Assembly: GCA_963704145.1 (NCBI GenBank)
Contig: CAVPHB010000001.1
Location: 91,212-155,211, forward strand
DNA: 64,000 bases
From: an uncultured Chloroflexia bacterium
Lineage (GTDB): Bacteria > Chloroflexota > Limnocylindria > Limnocylindrales > CSP1-4
Reading direction: 5' to 3'
In this document: positions 2,391 to 12,227 of the stretch, piece by piece
Position numbering within the stretch: position 1 is the stretch's first letter
Layout: every line of letters starts with the position of its first letter
Notes under the pieces: model-generated
What the model saw: the letters and a program-made list of their open reading frames with translations, nothing else
What the model was told of the DNA's origin: nothing
Databases searched by the model: none
Program-made: the position numbers and the translations under genes

Positions 2391-2465
2391 TGGCGAGTGG
2401 CCTAACGGTAAGGCACCTGACTCTGGATCAGGGGATTGAAGGTTCGAATCCTTCCTCGCCAGCCA
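2391..2465 (+). tRNA. tRNA-Gln (anticodon CUG), second copy, 75 nt, CCA encoded
   Basis: Identical to the 532-606 copy at 73 of 75 positions. The differences are at 2403 (T vs A, D-loop) and 2420 (A vs G, anticodon stem). It has the same CTG anticodon loop. Confidence 0.9.
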
Positions 2466-5694: not shown

Positions 5695-5926
5695 GTTGAC
5701 CTCCTTCAGAGCGAGGCGACTGGCGGCTGAACTGGCCGGGGCGTCCGGGCCAGCAAGCGACCTGGATATGATGCCCGATGGCGCCTGTCACGCTCGCGGT
5801 TGACGGCCCGCTGGCGTGGAGTACGCTTCCCGGCCACAAGCCTGTTCAGCCCGAGCCGCGCGGCGCCGTTGCGCGATCAGCCGGGAGACAGGTTTGCGGG
5901 TGCCGGTGAATTGGCGCGGGAGCGGA

Positions 5927-8182
5927 ATGTCCGTCCGGATACGGGTGTCGCGCCACCGGCCGACGCGTCTGCTCGTGTCGCTCGCGTCAATGGTCTTCCT
6001 GCTCGCATCGTGTGCCGCCCCGGCCCTGACTCCGCCGCCGGGCAGCGGCGCTCCCCCCGGCAGCACCTCGCCGCTCGAGACTCCGGCAGCCTCAGTGCCG
6101 CTCGTGGACGCGACGCCCACGATGCTCGACAAGATCGCCGCCGCTGAACTGGCCGGCACGCTCGACCACGACACCGCCCTGTTGTACGAGGTATACGCGG
6201 CGCTCGATGCGCGCAGCCTGCCGGCCGAGTATCAGAGCGGCGCCGCGCAGACGGCCGAGGCGACCGGCGCGCTGGCCGAACTCGTCGGCCGGCTCGACCA
6301 ACTGACCCCCGAGCTGCAGGCGAAGGTCGGTCCGTTCCTTCGGCGACCGACCGAAGCGGACAGCTTCTGGGCGTTACGCCAGCTGGCAGGCGGTCAGGCG
6401 GCCGCGCCGCTTGGGCTGGCCGTGGCCGCGCCCGACTTCGCCATCGAGTACGACTTCGTCGATGTCGTGTCGCCCACGCCCATCCGCGTGTGGTACGCCA
6501 CCGCCCTGGGCGACACGGAGCGCCAGGCAGCGCAGCGCCTGGCAACGGAGATCGACGCCAGCGACATGTGGGGCAAGGAGACCGAGGCGATGGTCGGCCG
6601 CCAGCCGTGCAGCGATCTAGAGCAGGAGGCACCGCGCAACGGCGGCAGCGCGGCGCTCGATGTCTACCTCATCTACCCGCTGACCGGCCTTGATTGGTAT
6701 GGACGGAACACCGGTCTCCAGAACGCAGATGATCCAGCGAAGTCGAACATGGGCGTGACCGTCGCGGCGCAGTCCGGCACCGGCTGCGCGTGGATCACCT
6801 ATATCGCGCTCAACGCCCGGCTGGGCTGGGATGACCTGCGCGCGACGATGGCCCACGAGCTGTTCCATGCGTTCCAGCTCAGCTTCAGGAGCTCCGAGCA
6901 AGCCGATCGCAAGTGGTGGAAGGAAGCGACCGCCACCTGGGTCGAAGACCTCGTCTATCCCGCTCTGAACACCGAGCAGGGCTACCTCGAGCAGTACTGG
7001 TCGCACGCCCTCGGGCCCAACGGCCCGCTCGACAGCACCGACAAGACCGCGGAGTACGCCGCCTACCTATGGCCGTTCTACGCCAGGCAGTCCGCGGGCG
7101 GGGACGAGGGCGTAATCGGTCGCCTGTGGGAGGAGATGCAGGGAGCCAAGTCGCCACTCGAGGTGCTTCGCGACAGCCCAGGCTGGACGGCCGGGTTCAA
7201 GGAGTTCGCACTCTGGAACTGGAACAAGGACCCGCTATTGGACTACCGCGACAGCGGGCAGCCAATCCCGGAGTCGGTGCTCGGTCAGAACGCCGGCTGT
7301 CTCAAGGAGAACTGCATCGTCCCACTCGGCAAGCAGGACCTGTACATCGACCTTGAGCACGCGTCGGTCGTCTACTACCAGGGCACGCCCGAGATCACCG
7401 TCGAACAGCTGCGCTTTGATCTGGCCGACCTGAGGGGCAAGCCGGGCGCCGGCCTGCAGGCGATCATCACCATCGGTCAGCCAGGCCCCGGGGCCGAGAC
7501 GCGGACGGAGGACTGGACGGATCTCGACAAGCGAGTCTTCTGCATCGCCCGCGAAGACGTGCGCGAGATCGTGCTCGTCGTTTCCAACAGCGGCATCGAT
7601 GCGGACCAGAAGCTGCAGGGCAAGATCGCCATCGAGGCGCTGGCCGCCCACTGCGGCGGCGGGCTGGCTACCTTCAGCCGGACTCAGACCTCATCGCACG
7701 CCGCCGTGGCCCAATGCGGCGTGTCCTCGTCGTACGAAGAAACCGCCACCCTGACGATGGTGGTGACGTTCGCTGCAGACGGCACGGGCACAGCCACGCT
7801 CAACGCGGAGCGCAATTCGACCGAGGTCTCGCAGGACGTCCTGTGCGGCGACGGCAGCGTCCACACCAAGACCGTTTCGGAGCGCATCTCGGGCACCAAA
7901 CCCACTGATGTCACCTGGAACATCACCGACGACGGTGTGATCGACTTCTACGCCGGCTGGGACTTCGTCACCGGCGGCACCACCGTGACCACGACGAGCT
8001 GCACGGCGCCCGCCTCATGCGACGGCACAACGACCGAGGAGTACGTCCTCGAGTACGACGCGCTGTACTTCACCGCCGCGGGCGATCCCTCCAGGTCGGT
8101 CATTACCGGCACGATGACCGAGGATGACTCGGGCGACGGCTATACCGATGTGATCATCTACACCTGGACGCTGGAGCGCTAG
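5927..8182 (+). CDS. Large secreted lipoprotein with a single HEXXH zinc-metalloprotease motif
   Basis: The ORF track gives 5816..8182. I prefer the ATG at 5927 (MSVRIRVSRHRPTRLLVSLASMVFLLASCAAP, lipobox LLASC) with an upstream GGGAG. It carries the motif TMAHELFHAFQ and a Thr/Gly-rich C-terminal region with paired cysteines. Confidence 0.65.
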   Translation: MSVRIRVSRHRPTRLLVSLASMVFLLASCAAPALTPPPGSGAPPGSTSPLETPAASVPLVDATPTMLDKIAAAELAGTLDHDTALLYEVYAALDARSLPAEYQSGAAQTAEATGALAELVGRLDQLTPELQAKVGPFLRRPTEADSFWALRQLAGGQAAAPLGLAVAAPDFAIEYDFVDVVSPTPIRVWYATALGDTERQAAQRLATEIDASDMWGKETEAMVGRQPCSDLEQEAPRNGGSAALDVYLIYPLTGLDWYGRNTGLQNADDPAKSNMGVTVAAQSGTGCAWITYIALNARLGWDDLRATMAHELFHAFQLSFRSSEQADRKWWKEATATWVEDLVYPALNTEQGYLEQYWSHALGPNGPLDSTDKTAEYAAYLWPFYARQSAGGDEGVIGRLWEEMQGAKSPLEVLRDSPGWTAGFKEFALWNWNKDPLLDYRDSGQPIPESVLGQNAGCLKENCIVPLGKQDLYIDLEHASVVYYQGTPEITVEQLRFDLADLRGKPGAGLQAIITIGQPGPGAETRTEDWTDLDKRVFCIAREDVREIVLVVSNSGIDADQKLQGKIAIEALAAHCGGGLATFSRTQTSSHAAVAQCGVSSSYEETATLTMVVTFAADGTGTATLNAERNSTEVSQDVLCGDGSVHTKTVSERISGTKPTDVTWNITDDGVIDFYAGWDFVTGGTTVTTTSCTAPASCDGTTTEEYVLEYDALYFTAAGDPSRSVITGTMTEDDSGDGYTDVIIYTWTLER

Positions 8183-8238: not shown

Positions 8239-9474
8239 GTGATGTTACGCAACGCGTACGATGGGGAACCCCGTCCCCGCCGGTGGCGAGCACCGAGGAG
8301 CGTATCGACCATGGCCAGCCCTGTGACCAGCACGAGCGATCTGCTGCGTTCGCTGGGCCTGTCCGTCGACGGCCCGGCACGCTGGGGCAACCCGGTCGCC
8401 AGCCGCGCGGCCGGTGTCTTCGTGGTCGAGCTGCCCGGGGGCGCGGACAGCCCACCGATCGACATGATCTCGGTGCGCCGCTGGGTCGAGCGCGTGCCGG
8501 CGATGTTGCTCGATGGCGAGCCAAGCACCGCCCAGGAGGTGGCCCGCCAACTGGCCGCCTTCTGGCTGCCCGGTGAGCCGATCCTCTATGTCGGCCGCTC
8601 AGCCAAGTCGATCGGTGCGCGCGTGGGGTCGATGTACGCCACCGAGCTGGGCGACGCGCGGCCCTATCCCGCCGGCCATTGGCTCAAGACGTTGTCGGTG
8701 CTGACCAGCATGCGCGTGTGGTGGGCCGAAACCAACGCCCACGAGGAGTACGAGGACGCGCTGCTGGCGGCAGTCGCCGGACGGGCGAGCCCTGAGGCCA
8801 TCGCCACGCTGCCCGACGCGAGCGTGGTGCTGCCCTTCGCCAACCTGTCCGGACCGGGCGGCCCCAAGCGCCATGGCCTCACGCACGCACTGCGCGACGT
8901 TGACAGCACGACCGTGTCGGCCACTAGCGGCCCCGCCCGCCGGCGCGCAGCGGCCCGCCCGCGCTCCGCCGCCAGCACACCGCGCGAGCCGCGGCTGAAG
9001 GTCAGCCGGCCGGTGCCCGACCCAACGTACGTGTCGCGCGAAGGCCTCGACCGCCTGACCGCGGAGCTCGACGAGCTGCGCGCGAACGTGCGACCCCAGG
9101 TCATCGCCCGCGTCAAGGCCGCGCGCGAGCTGGGTGACCTGAAAGAGAACGCCGACTACGAGTACGCGCGCAAGGAACAATCGTTCGTCGAGGGGCGCAT
9201 CAAGACGCTCGAAGCGATGATCACCACCGGCGTCGTGATCGATGCGCCGGCAGCCGCCGAGACCGTGCACCTCGGTTCGACGGTGGTCGTCGAGTCGGAC
9301 GGCGAGCAGGATGTCTACCTCGTCGTTGGTTCGGCCGAGGCCGATCCGCCCAACGGACGCATCTCGTACATCTCGCCCGTCGGCCGCGCCCTGATGGGCG
9401 CGCGGGCAGGCGACGAGGTCTCCGTTCAGCTCCCGCGCGGGTCGATCAAGTACCGCATCCGCGAGATCCGCTGA
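8239..9474 (+). CDS. greA: Transcript-cleavage factor GreA with a ~260-aa N-terminal extension (GIY-YIG-like domain plus Arg/Ala/Pro linker)
   Basis: Uninterrupted 411-aa ORF. The C-terminal 147 aa (from GTG 9031) form a complete Gre factor: coiled coil LTAELDELRANVRPQVIARVKAARELGDLKENADYEYARKEQ (acidic tip) plus a globular domain (…ISYISPVGRALMGARAGDEV…). Upstream in the same frame are GVFVVEL … ILYVGRSAKSIGARVGSMY … EEYEDALL … LPFAN. Alternative N-terminal start is ATG 8311. Confidence 0.8.
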   Translation: MMLRNAYDGEPRPRRWRAPRSVSTMASPVTSTSDLLRSLGLSVDGPARWGNPVASRAAGVFVVELPGGADSPPIDMISVRRWVERVPAMLLDGEPSTAQEVARQLAAFWLPGEPILYVGRSAKSIGARVGSMYATELGDARPYPAGHWLKTLSVLTSMRVWWAETNAHEEYEDALLAAVAGRASPEAIATLPDASVVLPFANLSGPGGPKRHGLTHALRDVDSTTVSATSGPARRRAAARPRSAASTPREPRLKVSRPVPDPTYVSREGLDRLTAELDELRANVRPQVIARVKAARELGDLKENADYEYARKEQSFVEGRIKTLEAMITTGVVIDAPAAAETVHLGSTVVVESDGEQDVYLVVGSAEADPPNGRISYISPVGRALMGARAGDEVSVQLPRGSIKYRIREIR

Positions 9475-9477
9475 CCT

Positions 9478-10284
9478 TCAGGGTCGCTCGAGGCCGTGTG
9501 CCTCCAGCAGTCGCTCGTCGCCCAGGATCGTGGTCGCGGGCCCGTCGGCCACGATCAGACCGTCGTCCATCAGGACCACCCGCTCGAATACCTCGGCCAC
9601 CAGGCGCATGTCGTGCGTCGAGGCCACGATGGTCTGCGACCTGGCGCGCAGCACCGCGATGAACTCCCTTCGCCCACGCGGGTCGAGGCCGGCTGACGGC
9701 TCGTCGAACACGAGCACCTGCGGATCCATCGACAGGACCGTGGCCAGGGCGACGCGCTTGCGCTGACCCAGGCTCAGCCGATGCGGCATGCGGCGCTCGA
9801 AGCCGGTCATGCCGACGGCGGCCAGGGCCCGCTCGACCCGATGGTGGATGTCCTGTTCGGGCAAGCCCATGTGCAGCGGGCCGAAGGCGACGTCCTCGAA
9901 CACGGTCGGGCTGAAGAGCTGGTCGTCGGGATCCTGGAAGACGACGCCAACGCGAGCGCGAACGCGGCGCACCGTCGACCGGTCGACGACCAGGTCGCCC
10001 ACCCGGACCGTCCCGTGGGTCGGCTCGAAGATGCCGTTCAGGTGCAGCAGCAGCGTGCTCTTGCCGGCGCCGTTCGGCCCGACCACGGCGACCTTCTCAC
10101 CGGCCGCGATGGCCAGCTCGATCCCCTTGAGCGCCTCGAAGCCGTCCGGATAGCGGAAGTGAAGGTGCTCGATCAGGACCTCGGCGCCGGCCGCGTTGCC
10201 CGGGCCGGTGACGTCCGGCTGGTCATGATGATGGGCGCCGGCCTGATGGGCGTGGGCGTGTACGTGCGGCGCGGGTTGGGTCAT
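9478..10284 (-). CDS. cbiO: Cobalt/nickel ECF-type transporter ATPase CbiO, with a His-rich N-terminal tail
   Basis: 268-aa ORF with Walker A GPNGAGKST, signature LSLGQRKR and Walker B LVFDEPSAGLD. The N-terminus reads MTQPAPHVHAHAHQAGAHHHD. Its start overlaps the cbiQ stop (10281-10284). Confidence 0.9.
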   Translation of the reverse strand: MTQPAPHVHAHAHQAGAHHHDQPDVTGPGNAAGAEVLIEHLHFRYPDGFEALKGIELAIAAGEKVAVVGPNGAGKSTLLLHLNGIFEPTHGTVRVGDLVVDRSTVRRVRARVGVVFQDPDDQLFSPTVFEDVAFGPLHMGLPEQDIHHRVERALAAVGMTGFERRMPHRLSLGQRKRVALATVLSMDPQVLVFDEPSAGLDPRGRREFIAVLRARSQTIVASTHDMRLVAEVFERVVLMDDGLIVADGPATTILGDERLLEAHGLERP

Positions 10285-11075
10285 ATGCGCGGCAGCCAGA
10301 GCTGCGCCGTGACGATCAGGCCGAGGCAGGCCAGCAACACGACCGCCAGCACCAGGTATTCACCGGCGCGCACCTGTCGGCCGTGCATGTGCCGGAACTC
10401 ACCTTCGAAGCCGCGCGCTTGCATCGCCGCGTAGATCCGTTCGCTGCGCTCGTACGAGCGCAGGAAGAGCGAGCCGACCAGCGCGCCGGTCACCCGCGCC
10501 CGCCACAGCCAGCTGCCGCCGCCGCGTCCGTCGACGACCGCCGAGCGGGCCGCGCGCGCCCGGGTCATACGCCCACCCTCGCTGACCAGGACCGCCAAGT
10601 AGCGATAGGTGAAGCTGATGATGGCGACCATCACCCGCGGCAGACGCAGCTGGCGCAGACCGTCGACGAGCTCGTGGAAGGGCGTCGTGAAGGCGAGCAG
10701 CAGCGCGGCCTGGACGCTGATCCACGATTTGAGGGCAATCGTCGTGAACTGGCGCAGCCCTTCCCCGCTGACGGTCAGCGTCAGCGGGCCGAGCGCGATC
10801 TGGCCCAACGGATCCTCGGGCCGGGTGAAGACGAGCGGCAGCGCGGCGAGCATGAACGGCAGCGCGAAGAACGCCCGGCGAGCCGGCAGCAGCGGACCGA
10901 GGTGGGCGCCAAAGGCAGTCGAGACGACGCCCAGCCAGGCCACGGCGAGGGCGAGGTAGCCGCCCACCGGCAGCAGGCTGACCGTGACGATGAACGCGAT
11001 CGTCCCGAGGAACTTGACCCGTGCATCGGCGCGATGCAGCGGGCTCGGACGGGCGATGTAGCGATCGAGGTCCAG
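10281..11075 (-). CDS. cbiQ: Cobalt/nickel ECF transporter transmembrane (T) component CbiQ; start codon uncertain
   Basis: The ORF track starts at GTG 10967. The same frame upstream reads TTLDLDRYIARPSPLHRADARVKFLGTIAFIVTVSLLP, a typical CbiQ N-terminus, right after the cbiN stop (TAG 11085-11087). CTG 11075 is the only near-cognate start I see there. Confidence 0.75.
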   Translation of the reverse strand: MDLDRYIARPSPLHRADARVKFLGTIAFIVTVSLLPVGGYLALAVAWLGVVSTAFGAHLGPLLPARRAFFALPFMLAALPLVFTRPEDPLGQIALGPLTLTVSGEGLRQFTTIALKSWISVQAALLLAFTTPFHELVDGLRQLRLPRVMVAIISFTYRYLAVLVSEGGRMTRARAARSAVVDGRGGGSWLWRARVTGALVGSLFLRSYERSERIYAAMQARGFEGEFRHMHGRQVRAGEYLVLAVVLLACLGLIVTAQLWLPRI

Positions 11076-11084
11076 GGTAGTGGC

Positions 11085-11411
11085 CTACGACTGCCGGCGC
11101 CGGGAAAGCAGACGACCGAGCAACACCATCGCCCCGAAGACGAGCGCGACGCCGATCAACCCGGCGATGATCTTCGACAGGTTGCCGTCGATCCCGGGCA
11201 CGTTGTAGCCCGGTAGGAGCGAATAGAGGGCGGCCTGGGCGGCCTCGAGGAAGCCCTGGTCCTGGGCCACCCGCTGCAGACCATCGGGGTCAGGCGAGGC
11301 CAGCGGCGCCAGCACGATCACGACCAGGGCGGCGATGGCCAGCCCGGCCAGCCACCAGTGGCGCCGGATGGCCGAGCGCGGGGCGGGCTGCCTGTTCGGC
11401 TGATCGGCCAT
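11085..11411 (-). CDS. cbiN: Small membrane component of the Co/Ni transporter (CbiN-like / PDGLE-domain protein)
   Basis: Inside ORF 11085..11636 I prefer the ATG at 11411 (MADQPNRQ…WWLAGLAIAALVVIVLAPLASPDPDGLQRV…IAGLIGVALVFGAMVLLG). It has two TM helices flanking a PDGL motif. There is an ATGA overlap with the cbiM stop. Confidence 0.65.
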   Translation of the reverse strand: MADQPNRQPAPRSAIRRHWWLAGLAIAALVVIVLAPLASPDPDGLQRVAQDQGFLEAAQAALYSLLPGYNVPGIDGNLSKIIAGLIGVALVFGAMVLLGRLLSRRRQS

Positions 11412-12076
11412 CAGATCGCTCCGCCGGCCGGGGCCGGGCGGGCGTCGCGCAGCCTGAGCAGGTCGGCCCGGGTAACGGCGATGAACGCCAGCGCGGCCAT
11501 GGTGATCAGGGCTTCGCCGATCCCGATCAGGGTATGGACGCCGACCATCGCCGGCAGGGCGATCTCGAGCGGCGTGGTGCCGCTCAGGACCAGCTGGACC
11601 GTCATCGCGATCGATCCCAGCACGACCGAAGACCACGCCGCGATGCCCGCCGCTGGGATGCGCCGCCGCTCCTCACCGCCGAGCAGCCGGGCGATCACCC
11701 GATACAGGTAGTACCCACCGAGCGTGCCGACAATGCCCATGTCGAAGATGTTGGCGCCCATGACCACCAGGCCGCCGTCCTGGAAGACGATCGCCTGGAT
11801 GGCAACCACGCAGGCCATCGCCAGCGTGCCCGCCCACGGTCCGAGGAGTACCGCGGCCAGGACGCCGCCGAGCAGGTGGCCGGTCGTGCCACCAAAGACC
11901 TGGAAGTTGAACATCTGGGCGGCAAAGATGAATGCCGCCATCACGCCGAGAAGCGGCACGGCGCGCTCGTCGAGCGTGGCGTTGGTGCGTCTGACCGCGA
12001 CGGCCAGGACGAGGGCGGTGAGCAGCCACATCGCCGCGGCAACGGGCAGCGACAGGAACCCGTCCGGCGCGTGCAT
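11411..12076 (-). CDS. cbiM: Cobalt/nickel ECF transporter substrate-capture component CbiM/NikM
   Basis: Inside ORF 11411..12214 I prefer the ATG at 12076, giving an N-terminus MHAPDGF. This is the canonical M-H-x-P-D-G metal-binding N-terminus of CbiM/NikM. The protein is polytopic. Confidence 0.85.
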   Translation of the reverse strand: MHAPDGFLSLPVAAAMWLLTALVLAVAVRRTNATLDERAVPLLGVMAAFIFAAQMFNFQVFGGTTGHLLGGVLAAVLLGPWAGTLAMACVVAIQAIVFQDGGLVVMGANIFDMGIVGTLGGYYLYRVIARLLGGEERRRIPAAGIAAWSSVVLGSIAMTVQLVLSGTTPLEIALPAMVGVHTLIGIGEALITMAALAFIAVTRADLLRLRDARPAPAGGAI

Positions 12077-12179
12077 CTGCAGCGGATCGATGATCCGGCT
12101 CGGTCCAGAGCCGGCGATGGCGGCGAGCACTCGTCTTTCCTCCAGCCCAGTTGCCCGGCATCGTAGCCGCAGCCCGTCC

Positions 12180-12201
12180 TTATTGCAACAGCAGGCAATA
12201 A
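12180..12201. promoter_or_regulatory. AT-rich 7-8-7 perfect inverted repeat in the divergent cbiM / Fur-family promoter region (putative metalloregulator operator)
   Basis: TTATTGC-AACAGCAG-GCAATAA read directly from the sequence. It is flanked by TATACT / TATATG -10-like hexamers and lies 27 nt upstream of the regulator ATG (12228). Confidence 0.5.
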
Positions 12202-12227
12202 CTTCGCCGTGCATATACTGGGTAACG

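Follow-up and report, generated by a model that had tools for sequence, protein, structure and literature searches.

GreA is among the best-understood of the bacterial transcription factors. The canonical protein (E. coli GreA, PDB 1GRJ; NCBIfam models NF001263 and TIGR01462) is about 158 amino acids (aa) long and carries no extension. The gene described here lies on a 64-kb stretch of DNA from an uncultured Chloroflexia bacterium (contig CAVPHB010000001.1 of assembly GCA_963704145.1, positions 91,212 to 155,211 of the forward strand; hereafter the window), and its product has the same two Gre domains, acidic tip and fold, but adds at the N-terminus a GIY-YIG-like domain of ~190 aa and a basic linker of ~42 aa. 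The preliminary description, made by reading the sequence alone, was unaware of any published protein of this architecture, and likewise no paper pairing GIY-YIG with GreA, nor any pairing GreA with Limnocylindria, was found in the literature searched. The GIY-YIG-like/GreA fusion is thus not found described there, and is common in the databases as plain 'GreA'.

Other Gre factors with N-terminal extensions are represented by the NCBIfam models PRK06330 ('transcript cleavage factor/unknown domain fusion protein', 718 positions) and PRK14720 (906 positions), which we take to describe proteins from Chlamydia and spirochaetes. With the window protein these models aligned over the Gre part alone, scoring 45 and 89 bits where the cutoffs are 697 and 714, respectively, and their extensions are much larger and unrelated to the one in the window. 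The helicase-like HelD (PDB 6YXU) uses a Gre-like coiled coil to enter the secondary channel of RNA polymerase and to dock a larger protein there; its partner domain and domain order are different, its Gre-like part is not known to be a cleavage factor, and it gave a weak Foldseek match (E 0.24). Effector domains fused to the GreA/B C-terminal domain occur in predicted effector-TPR-GreA/B-C-PIN conflict systems (Kaur et al. 2021, PMC8195603), which share with the window protein a nuclease-type N-terminal domain and a Gre-derived polymerase-binding domain. Those systems, however, combine the Gre C-terminal domain alone with TPR, PIN and swappable effectors, whereas the window protein has a full GreA and a fixed N-terminal domain; nothing follows its Gre C-terminal domain, and Pfam detected neither TPR nor PIN in it. 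On the nuclease side, the UvrC N-terminal domain (1YD6, 1YCZ), I-TevI (1MK0), R.Eco29kI (3MX4) and R.Hpy188I appear to have the same order of elements as the window domain, namely GIY strand, YIG strand, Arg helix, third beta strand (beta-3), Glu helix and Asn. Unlike these nucleases, the window domain contains a two-helix insertion of ~45 aa and an extra N-terminal helix and strand, and it has Phe in place of the GIY tyrosine and Met four residues after the conserved Arg (Arg+4).

The 411-codon open reading frame (ORF) reported in the preliminary description at 8239..9474 (+) is present and without interruption, as checked by translation, and the peptides that had been picked out from it (AAGVFVVEL, ILYVGRSAKSIGARVGSMY, EEYEDALL, LPFAN, the basic linker and GDLKENADYEYARKEQ) were all found in the translated product. 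The frame is open upstream of an ATG at 8311 as far as the GTG at 8239. Translation is likely to start at ATG 8311 rather than at GTG 8239, because three indications agree: a Shine-Dalgarno-like GAGGAG read from the sequence 10 nucleotides (nt) upstream of the ATG (8295..8300 (+)), the length of the public gene call P0001 (387 aa, 100% identical to the window protein), and the N-termini of homologues, which fall a few residues ahead of the first conserved block. On the basis of the ORF list, this gene call and these N-termini, the whole fusion gene is placed at 8311..9474 (+), encoding 387 aa plus the stop codon. Residue numbers are counted from ATG 8311 unless the 411-aa ORF is named.

By every sequence test run the window protein is a member of the GreA family. 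The complete Gre factor claimed for its C-terminal part is borne out by both Pfam GreA domains (GreA_GreB_N at E 1.3e-24 and the C-terminal GreA_GreB domain at E 8.5e-23, together covering aa 264-410 of the 411-aa ORF) and by the NCBIfam GreA equivalog NF001263 (152 bits, cutoff 145); TIGR01462 also scored above its cutoff (147.2 against 139 bits). The C-terminal 150 aa (aa 238-387) thus form a complete GreA with coiled coil, acidic tip and globular domain. The coiled-coil domain (aa 240-306; 9028..9228 (+)) matches PF03449 above the gathering score (E ~1.2e-24), and its two helices were modelled by AlphaFold2 at aa 243-273 and 281-306. Between them lies the acidic tip G275-D-L-K-E-N280 (9133..9150 (+), read from the sequence), in which we take D276 and E279 to be the counterparts of D41 and E44 of E. 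coli GreA, the two acidic residues needed for stimulating cleavage. The tip, as GDL[RKS]EN, is kept in all 124 full-length fusions. The globular domain (aa 316-387; 9256..9471 (+)) matches PF01272 (E ~7.8e-23) and is further placed by the Foldseek and PDB matches. The Gre module was modelled confidently by AlphaFold2 and can be superposed on E. coli GreA; in Foldseek, GreA targets were matched with template modelling (TM) scores of 0.89-0.91 normalised to the target (0.89 for GreA 1grj), and the Foldseek and PDB matches of this part were GreA, GreB and Gfh1. Matches to the whole model were dominated by the Gre part, and a PDB sequence search with the fusion profile returned Gre proteins only. 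Judged by these features, the Gre module is apparently catalytically competent.

The two-domain architecture, for which a search of other genomes had been suggested, recurs there, and the gene is one unbroken ORF in seven independent genomic loci: the window, four loci from the genome collection and two on contigs of 2.9 and 2.4 Mb. Querying the protein database with only the first 240 aa returned at least 685 clusters, and among the 120 of these that were listed nearly all carry both GreA Pfam domains and are 370-420 aa long. Where a source gives them a name, it is 'transcription elongation factor GreA', with the extra domain not named. With one exception, the named sources of the fusions are Chloroflexota or Candidatus Limnocylindria/Limnocylindrales. 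The exception, P0025 (65% identical to the window protein), is on a 6.5-kb contig whose NCBI source is 'Candidatus Caenarcaniphilales', presumably an order of Melainabacteria; this assignment is probably a binning error and not a second phylum with the fusion. Among the 124 full-length fusions, two proteins share on average 56.6% identity in the N-terminal domain and 59.6% in GreA; across pairs, the identities of one part are correlated with those of the other (r = 0.77). On this measure the N-terminal domain is constrained as strongly as GreA itself, and the two parts co-evolve as one gene. GC content and GC content at third codon positions (GC3) are alike in both halves of the gene and in the neighbouring gene. 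The fusion gene is genuine and conserved in Limnocylindria-type Chloroflexota.

The extra part of the protein is real, although the N-terminal domain of ~260 aa originally proposed proved to be a folded domain of ~190 aa (aa 5-195; 8323..8895 (+)) followed by a linker of ~42 aa. AlphaFold modelling had been suggested, and with a 46-sequence alignment AlphaFold2 gave the N-terminal domain, modelled alone, a predicted local distance difference test score (pLDDT) of 92.4 and a predicted TM score (pTM) of 0.88. The limits of the domain rest on this model together with hhalign and the domain profile. The linker (aa 196-237; 8896..9021 (+)) is rich in Ala, Pro and Arg, has a net charge of +5 and is disordered in the model (pLDDT <50 at aa 199-231). 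In the 124 fusions it is 38-129 aa long (median 47 aa), carries a median net charge of +7 and is enriched in Ala, Pro, Arg, Thr and Ser.

Placement of this domain in the GIY-YIG superfamily, suggested in the preliminary description from motifs in the order that it named, is supported by profile comparison, by sub-threshold matches to the Pfam clan, and by UvrC and R.Eco29kI as top matches. A small GIY-YIG profile was built for hhalign from I-TevI, three UvrC proteins, Cho, YhbQ and Slx1; in validation it retrieved UvrC, SLX1, I-TevI, UPF0213 and EndoII from the PDB. Against it the domain profile aligned with 85.8% probability (E 5.4e-6), rising to 95.4% (E 2e-8) after removal of the N-terminal segment aa 1-29 and of the two-helix insertion at aa 44-87, with both strands and the Arg helix aligned. 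In 42 distant relatives, 21 of the sub-threshold Pfam matches went to four families, PF01541 (10), PF20815 (7), PF19239 (3) and T5orf172 (1), which either bear the name GIY-YIG or, in the case of T5orf172, are taken by us to be in the GIY-YIG clan; every other family was matched once. The top PDB sequence match of the relatives' profile was UvrC (1yd6, E 0.1), over the YIG strand and Arg helix, and faint NCBIfam matches were to the same UvrC segment and to a DEDD exonuclease-domain protein that presumably also carries a GIY-YIG domain. Invariant in the distant relatives are G-x-Y, Y-I-G, R, E and N, in that order, which is the hallmark set of GIY-YIG nucleases. In the AlphaFold2 model these positions fall on strand 35-40, on strand 91-97 with helix 101-110, on strand 135-140 with helix 144-158, and on the PFAN motif, and the order of secondary-structure elements fits the GIY-YIG fold. 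The two-helix insertion lies between the GIY and YIG strands (aa ~46-87; 8446..8571 (+)), with modelled helices at 52-61 and 74-82. Because independent weak signals and the hallmark residues converge on one superfamily, we conclude that the N-terminal domain is best regarded as a divergent, unannotated branch of it.

In Hpy188I-DNA structures the tyrosine of GIY serves as the general base and a second Tyr or His as its proton-shuttle partner, and both tyrosines were necessary for the folding and/or the activity of the GIY-YIG enzymes tested (PMC3045582). In the window the 'GIY' strand, located by hhalign, reads G35-V36-F37-V-V-E-L (8413..8433 (+)), with F37 encoded at nt 8419-8421. Position 37 is Phe in 123 of 141 fusions (87%) and Tyr in 12; it is Tyr in all 29 stand-alone relatives and in 14 of 15 relatives with a C-terminal extension. 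The 'YIG' strand I-L-Y93-V-G-R is followed by the Arg helix with R104 and M108 (8581..8640 (+), from the UvrC and I-TevI alignments). Here Y93-V94-G95 aligns with 'YVGKA..R..Y' of UvrC and YVG of I-TevI, and the counterparts of Y93, R104 and M108 in I-TevI are Y17, R27 and H31. Position 93 is Tyr in 109 fusions, Phe in 30, and Tyr in 29/29 stand-alone relatives. Arg at position 104, which also aligns with the UvrC Arg, occurs in 139 of 141 fusions and throughout the stand-alone relatives, and position 108 (Arg+4) is Met, Leu or Ile in the fusions and Tyr or Phe in the stand-alone proteins.

Column counts were also made for the remaining hallmark positions. The helix after beta-3 (8740..8784 (+)) bears E148 together with E145, E146 and D149; E148 is kept in 125/141 fusions, 29/29 stand-alone and 15/15 C-extended relatives, and is inferred from motif and position to be the putative metal-binding Glu, the counterpart of I-TevI E75. 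The conserved Asn motif is P175-F-A-N178 (8833..8844 (+)), with N178 in 126 of 134 ungapped fusions and 29/29 stand-alone relatives. The spacing between E148 and N178 is 30 residues, compared with a GIY-YIG expectation of ~12-15 and with ~13 in the shortest homologues (e.g. P0113), the greater length being due to a variable loop. The fused clade has also gained a series of near-invariant residues (D20, P22, R32, E40, R96, D115, R135, W137, W138, T141, E145, E146, Y147 and D149), and the acidic cluster E145, E146 and D149 is specific to it. Canonical nuclease activity is doubtful, because F37 replaces the general-base Tyr and M108 replaces the Tyr/His, and we conclude that the domain is probably no longer a canonical nuclease. 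As the window copy fails these two defining catalytic features, it is labelled here 'GIY-YIG-derived' and not a GIY-YIG nuclease.

In a neighbour-joining tree of the domain, the all-Tyr stand-alone and extended forms lie apart from a single fused clade, within which fusions bearing Tyr diverge early and the 117 sequences of a crown group include none with Tyr. The window protein is most similar to this all-Phe crown group. The order of events in the tree, with Tyr-bearing fusions early and the Tyr lost later, is only suggestive because the internal branches are short. Since 12 of the 141 fusions keep the GIY Tyr, several with the full catalytic set, the fusion probably began with an active nuclease. 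If any fusion is an active polymerase-tethered nuclease, the Tyr-bearing P0111, P0119, P0127, P0130 and P0149 are the likeliest.

We propose that the Gre module would dock in the secondary channel of RNA polymerase and stimulate cleavage of backtracked RNA, as in other bacteria. In solved Gre-polymerase complexes the N-terminus of GreA lies outside the secondary channel, and by analogy the tether would keep the domain close to the channel mouth, where it could reach downstream DNA or the 3' RNA extruded on long backtracking. There the domain and its basic linker may bind either of these nucleic acids or a polymerase surface, and such tethered binding could change how GreA is recruited to, or retained on, paused or backtracked complexes, perhaps by lending it a hold on longer backtracked RNA like that of GreB. 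A predicted non-catalytic binding module that modulates GreA recruitment or retention, rather than a working nuclease, is favoured because the domain has lost the general base, has kept the residues predicted to bind phosphate and metal, and shows a conserved surface that is new. We hold this reading with slightly better than even confidence.

It is extremely unlikely that the fusion is an artefact in which assembly or an indel joined two genes, or that a short GreA is made alone from the GTG at 9031, as the preliminary description had allowed. That codon is present in the window, and a few database entries do consist of the N-terminal domain only. However, the equivalent codon is CTG, GTC, GTT or CTC in 6/6 related loci, none of them a start codon, so that a conserved internal start is unsupported and was rejected, and no purine-rich Shine-Dalgarno motif precedes GTG 9031 immediately upstream in the window sequence. 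Two of the N-terminal-only entries, P0089 and P0071, were rejected as true stand-alone domains; they look like frameshifted or truncated calls because out-of-frame GreA remnants follow the domain. An assembly artefact was likewise rejected, given the 685 clusters matched, the 124 full-length database proteins and the continuous ORF in seven independent assemblies. Somewhat more room is left for the domain being unrelated to GIY-YIG, its motifs convergent on a new fold, for example a polymerase- or protein-binding module, which we nonetheless regard as very unlikely. Several results pull in that direction and weigh against the ancestry proposed above. Neither the window protein nor 46 fused homologues had any match to the N-terminal domain in Pfam, NCBIfam, PHROGs or PADLOC, and this includes PF01541, the family that the preliminary description had put forward for checking; the relatives of the domain likewise gave nothing above threshold in the curated libraries. 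The top PDB match of the domain alone in Foldseek, R.Eco29kI, was weak and not significant (E 0.11, probability 0.41, TM 0.30), no significant structure match was found in BFVD, and the confident stretch of the hhalign alignment is short, at 24-35 columns. Set against this is the convergence of independent weak signals on a single superfamily, and the fact that the invariant residues are the GIY-YIG hallmark set in the right order and on the right elements.

If the ancestry is accepted, the main rival is that the domain is still an active, polymerase-tethered nuclease with an altered active site (for instance one using E145, E146 and D149, or Y93 as the base) that nicks DNA or trims RNA, and that GreA delivers it to stalled or backtracked complexes for transcription-coupled incision or conflict resolution. 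This is unlikely, but some points are in its favour: R104, E148, N178 and mostly Y93 are kept, and together with the new invariant acidic residues beside E148 they may form an altered site that still cuts; ~8% of the fusions, e.g. P0111 and P0119, have a complete canonical catalytic set; and the constraint on the domain is as strong as that on GreA. These points count against the favoured reading, as does the fact that E148 was equated with I-TevI E75 by motif and position, in a region where the tail of the hhalign alignment has low confidence. Nevertheless, in the form first suggested for this protein, the delivery of a nuclease to stalled complexes is unsupported. The general-base Tyr is Phe in the great majority of fusions, the window included, and the proton-shuttle position at Arg+4 is aliphatic. 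Mutagenesis has shown both tyrosines to be needed in known GIY-YIG enzymes (PMC3045582). E148 itself is lost in 11% of fusions, and to have a nuclease constitutively on each polymerase that GreA binds would be hazardous. The boldest form of the idea, that a whole class has wired a GIY-YIG endonuclease to the secondary channel through GreA, where it would incise DNA or process RNA at stalled or backtracked complexes, is somewhat more doubtful still. Were it true, a one-protein pathway for transcription-coupled incision or conflict resolution would exist independently of Mfd-UvrABC, with catalysis depending on the canonical Tyr in the early branches and on a remodelled site built around E145, E146, E148 and D149 in the crown group. 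Finally, the protein might be an anti-phage or conflict protein whose Gre part targets phage-hijacked polymerases and whose N-terminal domain is the effector, for which the effector-TPR-GreA/B-C-PIN systems are a precedent (PMC8195603) and to which the occurrence of non-fused relatives in defence islands or mobile elements lends some weight. This we consider very unlikely indeed. The protein is without TPR or PIN and has a full Gre coiled coil with a catalytic tip; its GreA part scores above the housekeeping equivalog cutoff; all named sources but one are Chloroflexota/Limnocylindria, with identities of 50-67% and domains that diverge in step; the fusion neighbourhoods are not defence islands; and the effector would lack catalytic residues.

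In this lineage every copy of GreA examined carries an extra domain that is as conserved as GreA and is recognised by no annotation pipeline. A nuclease of defence islands appears to have become a permanent part of the transcription machinery, with the catalytic tyrosine lost on the way. The fusion offers a testable system for the roles that an accessory domain may play at the channel mouth, such as capturing RNA that is extruded, contacting downstream DNA or regulating recruitment. The fusion also defines a new unannotated GIY-YIG branch with ~930 representative clusters, stand-alone forms included. Should the minority of fusions that keep the Tyr be active nucleases, no earlier case of a polymerase-tethered GIY-YIG enzyme is known to us. 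The finding is of moderate importance for transcription specialists, and would be of high importance only if the nuclease reading were true.

An exhaustive HMMER search with the domain profile detected 932 representative proteins at E <= 1e-3. The non-fused forms among them are stand-alone proteins of ~200 aa and proteins of ~300-340 aa with various C-terminal extensions; examples are P0280, P0204, P0354 and WP_157681613.1, which belong to the same family by E values down to 1e-77. These non-fused relatives keep the full catalytic set and are without GreA. Named sources of the non-fused relatives are Bacillota, Actinomycetota and Proteobacteria, and all are annotated 'hypothetical protein'. 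Three of the four with an informative gene context adjoin restriction-modification or other defence genes: P0280 has as neighbours a type IIG-like enzyme, HicAB, an HNH nuclease and a type I restriction-modification system, P0354 adjoins type I restriction-modification genes, and P0204 comes directly after a ScoMcrA_N gene, with DndB, a resolvase and type I-E cas genes nearby. P0305 is in an ordinary metabolic context. WP_157681613.1, from plasmid pMYCSM02 of Mycobacterium sp. JS623, lies in a stretch of small genes, one of them for a DNA methyltransferase. The non-fused family could be a candidate for a new restriction or defence nuclease. The non-fused copies are located in loci L012-L014 (gene at 6001-6606), L016 (6001-6978), L006 (681-1310) and L009 (7007-7621).

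At the C-termini of the extended relatives, at least three different modules occur. The commonest, of ~90 aa, has the pattern VTxxDIxxGxIRxP...K.LxP...W(D/N)PR.G...SG and occurs in P0189, P0226, P0236, P0244, P0254, P0264, P0266 and P0268; a guess that it might be a B3/EcoRII-N-like DNA-binding domain was not supported by Pfam or by a PDB profile search and was dropped. By their C-terminal modules, the other extended relatives are P0173, P0175 and P0248, and P0253 and P0256, and one other type of extension gave a faint HARE-HTH match. Two relatives of unusual length, P0171 (653 aa) and P0184 (512 aa), end in arginine-rich read-through tails and were set aside as apparently frameshifted calls, which are typical of high-GC metagenome contigs and are not distinct architectures.

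The setting of the fusion gene is not a defence island, and no restriction or defence genes were found beside the fusion genes in the neighbourhoods examined, which favours a housekeeping role over one in defence. These neighbourhoods vary between genomes, with no conserved operon partner; in the window the neighbours are a gene for a DUF6055 protein and a convergent cbiMNQO-type cobalt transporter, and in two other genomes they are unrelated metabolic and transport genes. No second Gre gene was found within the 64-kb window or the fetched loci, and no promoter-like or terminator-like sites were found around the fusion gene. The DUF6055 protein is encoded directly upstream by a 788-aa ORF (5816-8182 (+)) whose N-terminus is rich in Ala and Pro and which matches DUF6055 weakly (E 3.7e-8). 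Another contig with an identical GreA fusion has a DUF6055 gene in the same place, and its start in the window is probably further downstream, as the public call on that contig is 762 aa. On the other side, an energy-coupling factor (ECF)-type cobalt or nickel uptake cluster (cbiO/cbiQ/PDGLE(cbiN-like)/cbiM; 9478-12214 (-)) converges on the fusion gene, with the two stop codons 3 bp apart. No cobalamin riboswitch was detected in a whole-window Rfam scan at the gathering threshold, in which the sole matches were two tRNA genes at 532-603 and 2391-2462 (+).

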